Shown here in pieces: positions 33,267-35,785 of a DNA stretch of 64,000 nucleotides. Each line of letters starts with the position of its first letter. Position 1 is the stretch's first letter. The DNA comes from Gammaproteobacteria bacterium (lineage in GTDB: Bacteria; Pseudomonadota; Gammaproteobacteria; JACKNK01), in the NCBI GenBank assembly GCA_024234955.1, contig JACKNK010000006.1, positions 92,771 to 156,770 of the forward strand, in the 5' to 3' direction. A model generated the notes under the pieces. The model saw only the letters and a list, made by a program, of their open reading frames with translations, had not been told where the DNA came from and did no database searches. Both the position numbers and the translations under genes were made by a program.

Positions 33267-34742
33267 TCAGCGGGCGTCGGCGGCAACGAAGCGGCCATCA
33301 CGCAGAATCGGCACCACGTCGTAGATGTCGAGTTGCGCGCAGAACCGCACATCGTCCTCCCGCCCCAACGCGCTCAGGTGGCTGCCGGAGCCGGACATCA
33401 TCAGATCGGATTCCAGGTCGTCGCTCCGCAGCGGCTGGAAGTCCCCCACCACTTTTGCACCCTGCATCGCGTCCACGATGCGCGACGCGGCCACCAAGTC
33501 CTCGCTGGCCAGACTGCCCCGTCTGCCAGCCATGACCACGCTGATGGTCCGGCCTCGCGCGCGGGCGATTGCCTCCTGGGCGACGGCACGGGCATTCACC
33601 AGGGCACCAATCAGGATGCCGGCGGCGCCCTCCTCGGCGGCCGCGATGCAGCGCGTCCCATTGGTGGTGGTCAGGACCAGTTCCTGTCCGTCGAAACGAC
33701 GTTGGTGAAACGCCAGCGGGGAATTGTCGAAATCGAGGCCGGGCAGTTTTTGCCCGAGACGTTCGCCTGCGGTGAGCTCGCCAAGGCACTCTTCCGGCGA
33801 CGACACAGTGCGCACCGAGGCAATGCCTGCGGCCAGCGCGGCAACGATCGTCGTACTCGCGCGCAGCGTATCGACACAGATCACCAGGTCGCCGCGTCGC
33901 GCCGCCTCACGCGCCCCCTCGATACCGTTCACGATACGCACCCGGATGTCGCCAGCCGGACAGCAATCGAAGGTATCGGAACGCAGGCCGGTGCGCAGGG
34001 TTTCCAGATTCAGCGCGTCTCGTGGCGCGACGTTGCCGATGTTCACGCCGTTGCCGAGATGGCGGATCAGCCAGGCCTGCTGGTCGGGCCTGGGCGCCTC
34101 GAACACGATCCGGGACAGGTCGAGTTGCGCATGCAGTTGATCGACGAACTCCGGAATGACCTCGCCGGATGCGTCGAATATCCCGCTCGCCCCCGCCTCG
34201 CGCGCCTCCATGATGACCTTGGTGGCCCCTGCCCCGAGTTCCGCCTCGATCTCCGACACCCTGCTCGCGAACGACAGGCTCTGATCCGCGAACGCGGACT
34301 TCTTGCCGACCTCGCTGAACACGGTGAGCCCCCGCCCCCTCGCCTCCCGGATCAGATCGAGTTTCTCGTCGTGCGACATGCGTACGCTGCCGTCGGAAAC
34401 CTCGACACAATCGAATCCCAGCGCGAGCGCATCGCCCAGTACATGGTCGACACGCCCCTGCCGCCAGGCGACCTCCATCAGGGTGCCGCCGGGACAGACC
34501 TTGATGTCGTGTTCCCTGAGCAGGCGGATCTTCGCCTCGAGCAGGTCGCGCGGCGTCACCCGCGCGGTTCCCCAACCGAACTTGACCACGTCGATATAGG
34601 CACCGGCGACTTCGACGAGGTCCGTGAGTTCGCGCAGGCTCATGCTCTTGTCCAGCACCATCGTGGTGCCGGACAGCCGGGGTTTGGCCTCGCGGGCGGG
34701 CAGGCCCAGCTCCGCGAACGGGAAGCCGCTATCGCCCGGCAT
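33267..34742 (-). CDS. Fused phosphosulfolactate synthase (ComA) / 2-phosphosulfolactate phosphatase (ComB)
   Basis: N-half 'GTTMVLDKSMS...YIDVVKFGWGTARV...IKVCPGGTLMEVA...GFDCVEVSDGSV...VFSEVGKK' is ComA-like. C-half 'VICVDTLRASTTIVAALAAG...FDNSP...LVLTTTNGTR' is ComB-like. ATG 34742 overlaps the upstream stop (TGATG). Confidence 0.8.
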   Translation of the reverse strand: MPGDSGFPFAELGLPAREAKPRLSGTTMVLDKSMSLRELTDLVEVAGAYIDVVKFGWGTARVTPRDLLEAKIRLLREHDIKVCPGGTLMEVAWRQGRVDHVLGDALALGFDCVEVSDGSVRMSHDEKLDLIREARGRGLTVFSEVGKKSAFADQSLSFASRVSEIEAELGAGATKVIMEAREAGASGIFDASGEVIPEFVDQLHAQLDLSRIVFEAPRPDQQAWLIRHLGNGVNIGNVAPRDALNLETLRTGLRSDTFDCCPAGDIRVRIVNGIEGAREAARRGDLVICVDTLRASTTIVAALAAGIASVRTVSSPEECLGELTAGERLGQKLPGLDFDNSPLAFHQRRFDGQELVLTTTNGTRCIAAAEEGAAGILIGALVNARAVAQEAIARARGRTISVVMAGRRGSLASEDLVAASRIVDAMQGAKVVGDFQPLRSDDLESDLMMSGSGSHLSALGREDDVRFCAQLDIYDVVPILRDGRFVAADAR

Positions 34743-35785
34743 CAGTGGTAACCGAACCAGAGCACCACACAGAGCACGATGAATCCGCTGGGGACCCACA
34801 ACTGCGAGCGCCGGTCGATCTTTTCGGCGACGTCCGCCGCGCCACGGGCGGCCGCCCGGTGCACCAGCACGTTCTCGATGATGGTCAGCGCCGTGAAGAA
34901 ATAGGCGGCGTAAACGACCGCATCCAGGAAGGTGATTTCGGTGATGCGCGGCAGGTAGCCGGAAATCACGCGATGACTCGCCACCACCGCCAGCAAGGCC
35001 AGGAATGCCCGCATCATGCGCCCGCTGGACTGCTCGCCGGTCATCCAGAACACCGACCACGACAGCGCCACGATCACGAACAGCGGCAGGATCAGTTTCC
35101 ACAGGTAGAAACCCGGGTCGCGTTCGACGCTCAGCCGGAAGATGAGTTCATGAAACTCGTCCTCCGCGCGAATTTCCCTCTCGCCGCGCAGCTCGGTCGA
35201 GTGGTCCAGGAAGCGCCATTCCGGCGCGACCATGTCCGGGTTGAAACCGGTGTGACTCGGCAACACCTTGAAAACCAGTTCATCCCGGGTCCATGACGAG
35301 GACTCGATATCCATCTCCAGGGTCTGACGGTCGAAAGGAAAGCGGATCAGGTCGAAGCGGGTTTTCAGCACCGCGTTGAAGCGTTCCTCATATTCGACGG
35401 CGCCGTCGGAGCGGACGATCAACTTGAGGTGCTCCCGCGTCCGTGCGCGCTCGGCATTCTCAAGTTCGATGGCGGGATGCCAGATCTCATTGAGCAGCGT
35501 TTCCGCATTGTGTTCAGTCAGAACACGTGGCTCGGCACCCTTGCCATCACCCCAGGCGAGTCGTGGGTCCCGCCAGCGCAGGTCCAGGAACACTTCGGCG
35601 TCGTAGGATGGAAAAGGGTCAGAGGCATCCGCGACTCGATTCACGGACAGCACGTAAACACCGATTCCGACCTGGACCGTGTGCTGTGGAGGCTGGAGCT
35701 CCGCCGCGTCGGGGAGCGTCGCCGACACCGTCTGGGCAAATCCCGAACAGAACAGCAGGACCAACAACACGCGCCACAATCTCAT
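34742..35785 (-). CDS. Prokaryotic pentameric ligand-gated ion channel (Cys-loop receptor superfamily, GLIC/ELIC-like)
   Basis: Signal peptide 'MRLWRVLLVLLFCSGFAQTVSA', ~200-aa beta-sandwich ECD with the family-defining 'FPFDRQTL' loop, then four TM helices (M1 'PGFYLWKLILPLFVIVALSWSVFW', M2 'MRAFLALLAVVASHRVISGYLPR', M3, M4). Confidence 0.85.
   Translation of the reverse strand: MRLWRVLLVLLFCSGFAQTVSATLPDAAELQPPQHTVQVGIGVYVLSVNRVADASDPFPSYDAEVFLDLRWRDPRLAWGDGKGAEPRVLTEHNAETLLNEIWHPAIELENAERARTREHLKLIVRSDGAVEYEERFNAVLKTRFDLIRFPFDRQTLEMDIESSSWTRDELVFKVLPSHTGFNPDMVAPEWRFLDHSTELRGEREIRAEDEFHELIFRLSVERDPGFYLWKLILPLFVIVALSWSVFWMTGEQSSGRMMRAFLALLAVVASHRVISGYLPRITEITFLDAVVYAAYFFTALTIIENVLVHRAAARGAADVAEKIDRRSQLWVPSGFIVLCVVLWFGYH

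Follow-up and report, generated by a model that had tools for sequence, protein, structure and literature searches.

Our analysis revealed that a pentameric ligand-gated ion channel (pLGIC) gene and a gene encoding a ComA-ComB fusion protein (ComAB) form a genuine, strain-specific operon, and that both genes are ordinary members of their families. The operon lies in the window, the 64-kb stretch of DNA analysed here, and the identical arrangement was present at 100% identity in independent assemblies of the same strain from other samples. Functional coupling of the channel and the enzyme is plausible; the 1-nt overlap of their genes indicates co-transcription at most, not a common function. 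We regard the pairing as a curiosity that can be tested; it does not amount to an established system. The operon and its control region are as follows.

34742 to 35785, minus strand: pLGIC gene, 347 amino acids, GLIC/sTeLIC type, without an extra N-terminal domain
33267 to 34742, minus strand: ComA-ComB fusion gene, 491 amino acids, with Pfam, NCBIfam and PDB matches
34740 to 34744, minus strand: TGATG stop/start overlap, read from the sequence
35786 to 36112, no strand assigned: divergent intergenic region between the pLGIC gene and parD, 327 bp, the presumed promoter region of the operon

The TGATG junction described in the original prediction was confirmed: the TGA of the pLGIC gene (34744-34742) and the ATG of the fusion gene (34742-34740) have one base in common (junction ...taccacTGATGccg). 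No Shine-Dalgarno-like GGAG was found in the 20 nt before the fusion ATG; a GGAG is located 5 nt ahead of the pLGIC ATG. Since the fusion gene lacks its own ribosome-binding site and its start codon overlaps the channel TGA by one base, its translation is most likely carried out by ribosomes arriving directly from the end of the channel gene. An upstream GTG would give a 611-aa fusion ORF; this form was rejected in favor of the 491-aa ATG start because homologues align only from approximately residue 5-9 of the latter. The 327-bp intergenic region contained no match to the sigma-70 consensus, no promoter or terminator signal rose above the shuffled background, and Rfam and tRNA searches returned no matches.

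The first gene had been predicted to encode a GLIC/ELIC-type channel with a signal peptide, an FPFDRQ loop, four transmembrane helices and a GEQSSGR motif, and Pfam, the PDB profile search, AlphaFold2 and Foldseek agree on this identity. PF02931 (Neur_chan_LBD; cut-off 26 bits) matched at 1.6e-16, while PF02932 (Neur_chan_memb) reached 3.4e-4 and 21.4 bits, below its gathering cut-off of 28.1. The subfamily profile matched GLIC, the proton-gated channel of Gloeobacter violaceus, at 3.5e-67. In the AlphaFold2 monomer model (mean pLDDT 87.7), an N-terminal signal helix (residues 2-14) and a low-confidence linker are followed by a beta-sandwich (strands 37-222) and four helices (224-247, 253-277, 286-313 and 317-346). 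The best Foldseek matches were sTeLIC, GLIC, GlyR, ELIC and DeCLIC (E 1e-27), with target-normalised TM-scores mostly of 0.8-0.9 and of approximately 0.47 for DeCLIC, a longer protein; the closest was sTeLIC, an alkaline-pH-gated channel. Three elements of the channel are referred to below.

35717 to 35785, minus strand: predicted Sec signal peptide, approximately residues 1-23, MRLWRVLLVLLFCSGFAQTVSAT, read from the sequence
35324 to 35341, minus strand: FPFDRQ "Pro-loop", residues 149-154, from the subfamily alignment
34955 to 35029, minus strand: M2 pore helix, residues 253-277, from model secondary structure, column counts and the GLIC alignment

Several defining features of the pLGIC family are present: the ligand-binding beta-sandwich, M1-M4, a hydrophobic 9' residue, the Pro-loop and the pre-M1 arginine. 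Residues F149, P150, F151, D152 and Q154 show no variation across the subfamily alignment, with F149-P150-F151-D152 aligned to Y119-P120-F121-D122 of GLIC, and the equally invariant R222 before M1 corresponds to GLIC R192. GEQSSGR spans residues 250-256; its E251, in the M1-M2 loop directly before M2, is kept in 22 of 24 subfamily members. Along M2, R256 occupies position 0', R259 3', L265 9', A269 13' and R272 16'; L265, aligned with GLIC I233, is kept in all 24 members.

The second gene had been described as ComA-like in its N-terminal half and ComB-like in its C-terminal half, an assignment upheld by PF02679 and PF04029 and by matches to the structures 1QWG, 2YYV and 1VR0. The two domains are located as follows.

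33975 to 34697, minus strand: ComA (phosphosulfolactate synthase) domain, residues 16-256; PF02679, TIGR03849, 1QWG
33297 to 33899, minus strand: ComB (2-phosphosulfolactate phosphatase) domain, residues 282-482; PF04029, PDB matches

The ComA half matched PF02679 at 5e-86 (288.5 bits; cut-off 25.2), passed TIGR03849 marginally (280.7 bits; cut-off 280), and aligned across residues 25-259 with 1QWG (1e-56), interrupted by one 1-residue indel only. The motifs VKFGWGT, PGGTL, EVSDG, SEVGKK, EAREAG, FEAP and LETLRTGLRSDT are common to the fusion and 1QWG. The ComB half matched PF04029 at 4.5e-51 (173.6 bits; cut-off 26.4) and the structures 2YYV (7e-22), 1VR0 (1e-20) and 2Z0J (within 1e-18 to 7e-22). 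Every NCBIfam equivalog model fell under its cut-off for this half, the best being TIGR00298 with 130 vs 175 bits; judged by these scores, family membership is supported and the exact function is not fixed. From the known chemistry of ComA and ComB and the scheme of the coenzyme M pathway (PMC9457059), the product of the fusion from PEP and sulfite is likely (R)-sulfolactate.

The coenzyme M pathway itself (comABCDE, or the bacterial xcbABCDE) was rejected, since there is no comC, comD or comE. A ComC (Ldh_2) homologue was not found in the window by tblastn, and the scanned window ORFs include no TPP decarboxylase or aspartase-type gene and no other sulfonate gene, in line with the earlier statement that no comC/D/E or other sulfonate genes adjoin the pair. 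No regulator, exporter or further sulfonate gene adjoins the operon. The sulfur-oxidiser setting assumed in the original prediction is borne out by SoxY and SoxZ, both present within the window. In contrast, the fusion is not unusual, as had been supposed: both domains occur together in at least 62 protein clusters (90% identity), full-length fusions account for approximately 6 of the 150 top representatives at 50% identity, and annotation as such already exists for some, under the JGI name [quoted passage not shown].

The original prediction had also proposed a conserved two-gene module, to be given up if no other genome carried the pairing. Our neighborhood survey found ComA or ComB within 6 kb at none of approximately 80 distinct loci of channel relatives (25-53% identity), and a pLGIC beside none of approximately 85 ComA/ComAB loci; the pairing recurred only in the same strain from other samples. 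Among the sampled loci, it is thus specific to this lineage and not a conserved module. The neighbors of channel relatives vary (fumC, MaoC, NUDIX, alanine racemase and T6SS genes), as do those of ComAB (FCSD, AMP-ligases, methyltransferases, ATP-grasp and NeuB). The flavoprotein gene of flavocytochrome c sulfide dehydrogenase (FCSD) lies directly upstream in 8 of 43 other ComAB loci, and this linkage suggests that sulfur oxidisers have an overlooked outlet for sulfite in the synthesis of sulfolactate. Among the papers searched, none named both sulfolactate and ligand-gated ion channels.

The closest channel relative precedes tssB/tssC, and one ComAB relative follows tssG. The small genes intervening at these T6SS-linked loci have no homologue in the window.

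Membrane proteins of other kinds accompany the nearest relatives of the enzyme. In a neighbor-joining tree, the window ComAB was sister to the ComAB of locus L087 (99/100 bootstrap; 58% identity), whose gene follows, co-directionally and after a 10-bp gap, that of an MscS channel carrying a cNMP-binding domain. Within the surrounding clade (75/100 support), the genes of two more members follow that of a TAXI binding protein, a membrane-anchored protein with two transmembrane helices.

The DNA around the operon had been called a mobile, toxin-antitoxin (TA)-rich block. It is rich in TA genes (ParDE, MNT/HepT, BrnT/A-like, CopG-like, ParE/RHH, HigA-like and HicAB in the flanks), and the island genes around the operon are TA pairs and a helicase; mobility is not supported, since the TA block holds neither an integrase nor a transposase and codon usage of the operon is host-like. 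The window has only one integrase gene, of the XerC type, at 4833-5762, a long way from the operon. The operon-bearing segment lies between two repeats that are 90% identical.

32879 to 33178, plus strand: left copy of a 300-nt direct repeat, with a truncated CopG-like antitoxin gene (Pfam CopG_antitoxin)
38460 to 38759, plus strand: right copy of the 300-nt direct repeat, with an intact CopG-like antitoxin gene (Pfam CopG_antitoxin)

Both operon genes are native in codon usage: their GC3 values are 0.80 and 0.82, and their codon log-likelihoods (-0.94 and -0.96) lie within the core gene range of -0.79 to -1.08, while the adjacent TA genes and helicase give -1.05 to -1.43. A mobile element or integron cassette array was rejected, as no integrase, transposase or recombination sites were found at the borders. 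A 23-nt motif is repeated in 5 copies (0 expected) and is unlike the attC core. An excised circle, considered for a 5611-bp Logan contig (L170), was also rejected, since the 30-nt overlap of its ends is the k-1-mer common to both flanking repeats. A phage or plasmid origin was rejected as well: no viral relatives were found in IMG/VR contigs, and no plasmid record contained both genes, each having plasmid matches in separate records.

These surroundings bear on the view that the operon is accidental. Unrelated genes joined by rearrangement in a variable TA-rich stretch would be co-transcribed and functionally unrelated; the sulfolactate made by ComAB would serve a separate purpose, and the channel would act as other orphan bacterial pLGICs do. 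The absence of the pairing from every other lineage sampled, the many unrelated contexts of both families, and the position of the segment between 300-nt repeats and compositionally atypical TA genes are consistent with this account, which we consider possible but doubtful. Against it, the overlap is exact, the fusion gene lacks its own ribosome-binding site, and the sister ComAB likewise lies behind a gated ion channel, one of another family. Furthermore, both genes are compositionally native, and therefore the arrangement is no fresh accident.

We tentatively favor, with somewhat less than even confidence, a native operon, in the chromosome of a sulfur-oxidising bacterium, that co-expresses a sulfite-consuming enzyme and a gated conductance as one response unit. 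The channel would be a Sec-exported pLGIC with a periplasmic beta-sandwich and four membrane helices, and the fusion a cytoplasmic bifunctional enzyme whose ComA half would add sulfite to PEP and whose ComB half would remove the phosphate. Because no ComC, ComD or ComE follows, (R)-sulfolactate would be the end product. Such a unit would consume sulfite and make a sulfonate anion, and may respond to sulfite or an acid load in sulfur oxidation; alternatively, its role may lie in balancing anionic solutes. A signal in the periplasm, for instance pH or a small anion of the carboxylate type, would trigger the channel, which would not be a dedicated sulfolactate receptor. The sister ComAB behind an MscS channel and the clade members behind TAXI genes hint at such coupling to membrane proteins, and the native codon usage, the recurrence in independent assemblies, SoxY and SoxZ in the window and the FCSD-linked ComAB loci fit the reading as well; the absence of the pairing from the approximately 80 and approximately 85 other loci, the varied contexts of both families and the lack of an adjoining regulator, exporter or further sulfonate gene count against it.

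The MscS-type channel at the sister locus also raises the possibility that the pLGIC is an exit route, namely, an anion-permeable pore through which sulfolactate (or bisulfite) would leave down the membrane potential, as it might likewise through the MscS-type channel. The M2 arginines R256, R259 and R272 would suit such a pore, as would sTeLIC being the best structural match, since the open form of sTeLIC has an unusually wide pore. However, the conserved E251 at the cytoplasmic mouth, within a GE motif as in cation channels, argues for cation selectivity; positions 2', 6' and 9' (Met, Leu and Leu) are strongly hydrophobic; and R272 varies across the subfamily. Known pLGIC pores scarcely pass even acetate-sized anions, and we consider an exit route very improbable.

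Our preferred reading, a co-expressed response unit, must also be weighed against direct sensing, a generalised form of the original prediction, in which sulfolactate or a similar C3/C4 hydroxy-diacid anion would bind the periplasmic domain and gate or modulate the channel, linking production to detection. Sulfolactate is the sulfonate analogue of malate, and this likeness counts for the proposal. GLIC provides a precedent: succinate and fumarate bind to it, and its potentiation is strongest with fumarate, followed by succinate, malonate and glutarate in that order (PMC7336382; bioRxiv 10.1101/2023.03.03.530963). From the vestibular carboxylate pocket of GLIC, the triad R85/Y102/E104 is kept as R115/Y132/E134, and R105 and N152 are kept as R135 and N182; across 24 subfamily members, the triad positions hold Arg in 17, Tyr in 18 and Glu in 18. 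In contrast, R77, E181 and R133 of the principal face are replaced by E107, H212 and S163, and the kept pocket is generic among prokaryotic pLGICs. Moreover, the product is cytoplasmic, whereas the binding domain is periplasmic with no exporter gene adjoining, and the pairing is not conserved. Among the channel relatives, fumC lies upstream in 40 of 80, separated by a 7-bp gap or a MaoC-like gene. This would fit sensing of a malate-like anion; however, only one lineage shows the linkage (MAGs for the most part carrying the label Candidatus Binataceae/Binatus), and simple synteny may account for it. Taken together, these points make direct sensing unlikely.

GLIC, ELIC and sTeLIC serve as structural models for human neurotransmitter receptors; to our knowledge, neither the ligands that bacterial pLGICs bind in nature nor their roles in the cell are known. 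Genomics offers few clues to such a role, the partner in an operon being among them, and the present locus is a weak one, since only one strain showed the pairing. The sister enzyme behind a gated channel, the channel relatives behind fumC and the fumarate sensitivity of GLIC together lead to sulfolactate, malate, fumarate and succinate as candidate effectors for the channel. On a broader and rather speculative view, a bacterial sulfolactate synthase clade would be tied to gated membrane proteins from unrelated families (pLGIC, bCNG-type MscS and TAXI), and the pLGIC subfamily would be tuned to malate-like C3/C4 diacid anions. The anion may be sulfolactate for the window channel and, for the relatives linked to fumC, fumarate or malate. 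If true, malate-like anions would be the first physiological ligand class, and provide the first metabolic role, for bacterial pLGICs.

Comparison with known systems places the channel close to GLIC and sTeLIC in fold and size, in the FPFD Pro-loop without Cys-loop cysteines, in the four transmembrane helices with a short M3-M4 link, in the hydrophobic 9' gate and in the vestibular Arg/Tyr/Glu pocket. It differs in an identity of only approximately 25%, in the principal-face replacements given above, in the Arg at 16', and in a stretch from the FW end of M1 to M2 9' that is two residues longer, which places E251 at -5' and not -2'. The fusion has both catalytic domains of the methanogen ComA (MJ0255, PDB 1QWG) and ComB in pathway order; here, however, they form one polypeptide in a bacterial host, with no ComC, ComD or ComE. 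Other ComA-ComB fusions have the same architecture and length, with 44-58% identity and 56 invariant columns in common, but are neighbored by the genes listed above and by glycosyltransferases, with no pLGIC. L087 resembles the window in that ComAB comes directly after the gene of a gated ion channel; in contrast, that channel belongs to an unrelated family, of the bCNG type (PMC13591265), its ligand domain is cytoplasmic, and a convergent gene for a ComC-like Ldh_2 dehydrogenase adjoins. In the fumC-(maoC)-pLGIC operons, the channel gene is downstream, whereas it is upstream in the window, and the enzyme is a housekeeping fumarase linked within a single lineage. Like the window, these operons join a channel of the same subfamily (approximately 30% identity) to a cytoplasmic enzyme of C4 hydroxy-diacid (fumarate/malate) metabolism.

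The genes were found as predicted, an ion channel and an enzyme with overlapping stop and start, on the evidence of the open reading frames (ORFs) and the junction sequence taccacTGATGccg, in which one base is common to the channel TGA and the enzyme ATG:

34742-35785, minus strand: pentameric ligand-gated ion channel (pLGIC), 347 aa, ORF reading
33267-34742, minus strand: ComA-ComB fusion (ComAB), 491 aa, ATG at 34742, ORF reading

GGAG lies 5 nt ahead of the channel ATG, and the 20 nt upstream of the ComAB ATG hold no GGAG-like ribosome-binding site. A 611-aa ComAB ORF from an upstream GTG was rejected; since homologues align only from about residue 5–9 of the 491-aa form, the ATG of that form is taken as the start. 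Long antisense ORFs overlap both genes (472 aa at 33333-34751, plus strand; 183 aa; others); none matched a family, and such frames are expected wherever GC content is high.

Each protein is a typical member of a known family. Pfam gave the channel a Neur_chan_LBD match of 1.6e-16 and a Neur_chan_memb match of 3.4e-4, under its gathering score, and a PDB search with a profile of 24 subfamily members matched GLIC at 3.5e-67 and ELIC at about 1e-65. In its AlphaFold2 model (mean pLDDT 87.7, pTM 0.76), a signal helix and a beta-sandwich are accompanied by four further helices (224-247, 253-277, 286-313 and 317-346). The leading Foldseek hits were sTeLIC, GLIC, glycine receptors, ELIC and DeCLIC; most target-normalised TM-scores fell at 0.8–0.9, and that of DeCLIC, a longer protein, was about 0.47.

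In the enzyme, Pfam placed a ComA domain at residues 16-256 (5e-86) and a ComB domain at 282-482 (4.5e-51). The ComA half aligned to M. jannaschii ComA (1QWG, 1e-56) and B. subtilis 1U83 (1.5e-45), and the ComB half to 2YYV, 1VR0 and 2Z0J; the fusion narrowly passed the NCBIfam ComA equivalog (280.7 vs a cut-off of 280 bits) and scored under the cut-offs of the ComB equivalogs. In the established chemistry, PEP and sulfite yield phosphosulfolactate, and removal of its phosphate leaves (R)-sulfolactate (PMC9457059). The 64-kb window holds no ComC-type gene, suggesting that sulfolactate is the likely end product at this locus. The original prediction called the fusion unusual, which was not borne out: at least 62 clusters at 90% identity hold both domains (44–58% identity to the query, word-indexed search), several already named as bifunctional protein by JGI. 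In a library clustered at 50% identity, full-length fusions made up about 6 of the best 150 representatives and stand-alone ComA relatives numbered thousands, so that the fusion is a minority yet established architecture.

The pLGIC-ComAB pairing also proved not to be conserved. On the channel side, 185,579 species-representative genomes were scanned, giving 80 loci (25–47% identity), to which the closest relatives (up to 53%) were added; tblastn with ComAB found no homologue within 6 kb of these channel loci. On the enzyme side, no pLGIC was present in 80 metagenome loci and seven individual ComA/ComAB loci. The pair recurs only in contigs of this strain from other sequencing runs, at 100% identity. 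The overlap is real and translational coupling probable, but the arrangement was found in one strain only. Some form of co-regulated function is tentatively the leading reading, and an accidental operon is somewhat less likely.

The window is chromosomal, carrying UvrD, XerC, DapF, LysA, PilT/PilU, pyruvate kinase, Tex, PBP1C, HemE, an NtrBC-like pair and SoxY/SoxZ. SoxY and SoxZ lie directly behind this pair of a sensor kinase (NtrB-like) and a sigma-54 activator (NtrC-like), at 9911-14259, identifying the organism as a sulfur oxidiser. Between about 32.7 and 43.2 kb, a toxin-antitoxin (TA)-rich stretch encloses the pLGIC-ComAB pair, with CopG-like, ParDE, MNT/HepT, BrnT/A-like, ParE/RHH, HigA-like and HicAB genes and a low-GC 898-aa SF1 helicase; a 300-nt direct repeat (copies 90% identical) flanks ComAB, pLGIC, ParDE, MNT/HepT and BrnT/A. 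The description "mobile TA-rich block" held for the TA genes, and mobility found no support: GC3 and codon usage of pLGIC and ComAB are host-like, whereas those of the TA genes and helicase differ.

The 898-aa gene (GC 0.49), whose C-terminal half is SF1/RecD2-like and follows 500 N-terminal aa with no family assignment, is flanked by 29-nt inverted repeats, 90% complementary (38730-41807); it appears to have been acquired separately as an insert and is possibly a defence gene. The 23-nt motif GCAACAATGNGAGAACTGACCCC has 5 copies (0 expected), placed where genes of the TA-rich stretch end:

33156, 37703, 38737, 38901, plus strand: 23-nt motif
41778, minus strand: 23-nt motif

The related AAAACGCAAGACCTGACCCC has 3 copies at 38769-38967. 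A (GCCAGA)n run (32837-32896), read in frame as PEPEPE..., lies within a truncated CopG-like antitoxin ORF (32790-33098). Elsewhere (22359-32508), a gene cluster encodes MotA/ExbB, a pair of VWA-domain proteins and an OmpA protein carrying 11 thrombospondin type 3 repeats; after it come a RimK-like ATP-grasp gene and one for a protein of 1251 aa that has a BNR/sortilin-like propeller at its N-terminus. An MMPL/RND-type transporter and LolA-like gene (43372-47233) have the window's maximum GC3 (0.90–0.92 vs 0.74–0.83 in core genes).

Upstream of ComA/ComAB at other loci, 43 readable co-directional genes included flavocytochrome c sulfide dehydrogenase flavoprotein (8/43), AMP-ligase (7/43), methyltransferase (7/43), alpha/beta hydrolase (3/43), TAXI binding protein (2/43) and MscS-cNMP channel (1/43); downstream of ComAB were convergent dUTPase (10), ATP-grasp ligases (about 6) and a ComC-like Ldh_2 (1). 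The recurring dehydrogenase ties the fusion to sulfide oxidation. Its gene lies 106-168 bp 5' of ComAB in 8 metagenome loci (L115-L128 group, e.g. L118:4235-7852), with convergent dut 3'.

Among 62 fusions placed in an NJ tree, the sister of the window ComAB (P0039, bootstrap 99/100) is encoded 10 bp 3' of an MscS channel of 479 aa that carries a cNMP-binding domain at its C-terminus and is of the bCNG type (PMC13591265). Within the enclosing clade (75/100), fusions P0041 and P0044 each have directly 5' a gene for a TAXI-family binding protein of 434 aa, which has an N-terminal anchor, a second TM helix and a cytoplasmic coiled coil, and 540 bp of non-coding DNA precede P0040. Three unrelated membrane receptor/channel genes therefore precede one ComAB clade, outside which family-matched upstream genes are almost all enzymes; as a lead for channel-enzyme coupling, this gene order is suggestive only. 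The closest channel relative (53% identity; L086:1-3478) precedes a 121-aa gene and then T6SS tssB/tssC, and a ComAB among the closest relatives (L174:2-3887) has tssG and a TAXI-TM gene before it; a shared T6SS-flanking origin of both window genes is conceivable.

Immediately upstream of channel relatives were class II fumarase (29/63), MaoC-like hydratases (6/63) and NUDIX (6/63). In 40/80 genome loci fumC was upstream across a 7-bp gap or with a MaoC-like hydratase between (L019-L085, e.g. L020:4435-6993), with identities of 76–100% for FumC and 43–96% for the channel. These loci were counted as one lineage, since most are labelled Candidatus Binataceae/Binatus or "uncultured delta proteobacterium", and the linkage may be plain synteny. 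GLIC is potentiated by fumarate, so the fumC linkage seems a lead with better conservation than the pLGIC-ComAB pair itself. These relatives, as a second test case, and a brief list of candidate effectors for electrophysiology are the main yield.

Two motifs of the channel head the list below; the pore positions after them follow from alignment on the conserved M2-M3 LP, with conservation counted in the 24 subfamily members:

Residues 149-154: FPFDRQ
Residues 250-256: GEQSSGR
E251: M1-M2 loop, 22/24
R256: pore 0', 21/24
R259: pore 3', 15/24
L265: pore 9', 24/24
A269: pore 13', 23/24
R272: pore 16', 9/24, variable

The GE motif would argue for cation selectivity, whereas the pore arginines would argue for anion selectivity. 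That the channel is an export pore is very improbable. A ligand-product relationship, in which the channel would respond to what the enzyme makes, is unlikely; sulfolactate is the sulfonate analogue of malate, and the carboxylate pocket is a generic feature and a suggestive lead only. In GLIC, mono- and dicarboxylates bind an intersubunit (R77, E181, R105, N152) and a vestibular (R85, Y102, E104) pocket (PMC7336382), and potentiation follows fumarate > succinate > malonate > glutarate (bioRxiv 10.1101/2023.03.03.530963). In the channel studied here, GLIC R85, Y102, E104, R105 and N152 are retained as R115, Y132, E134, R135 and N182, whereas R77, E181 and R133 are replaced by E107, H212 and S163.
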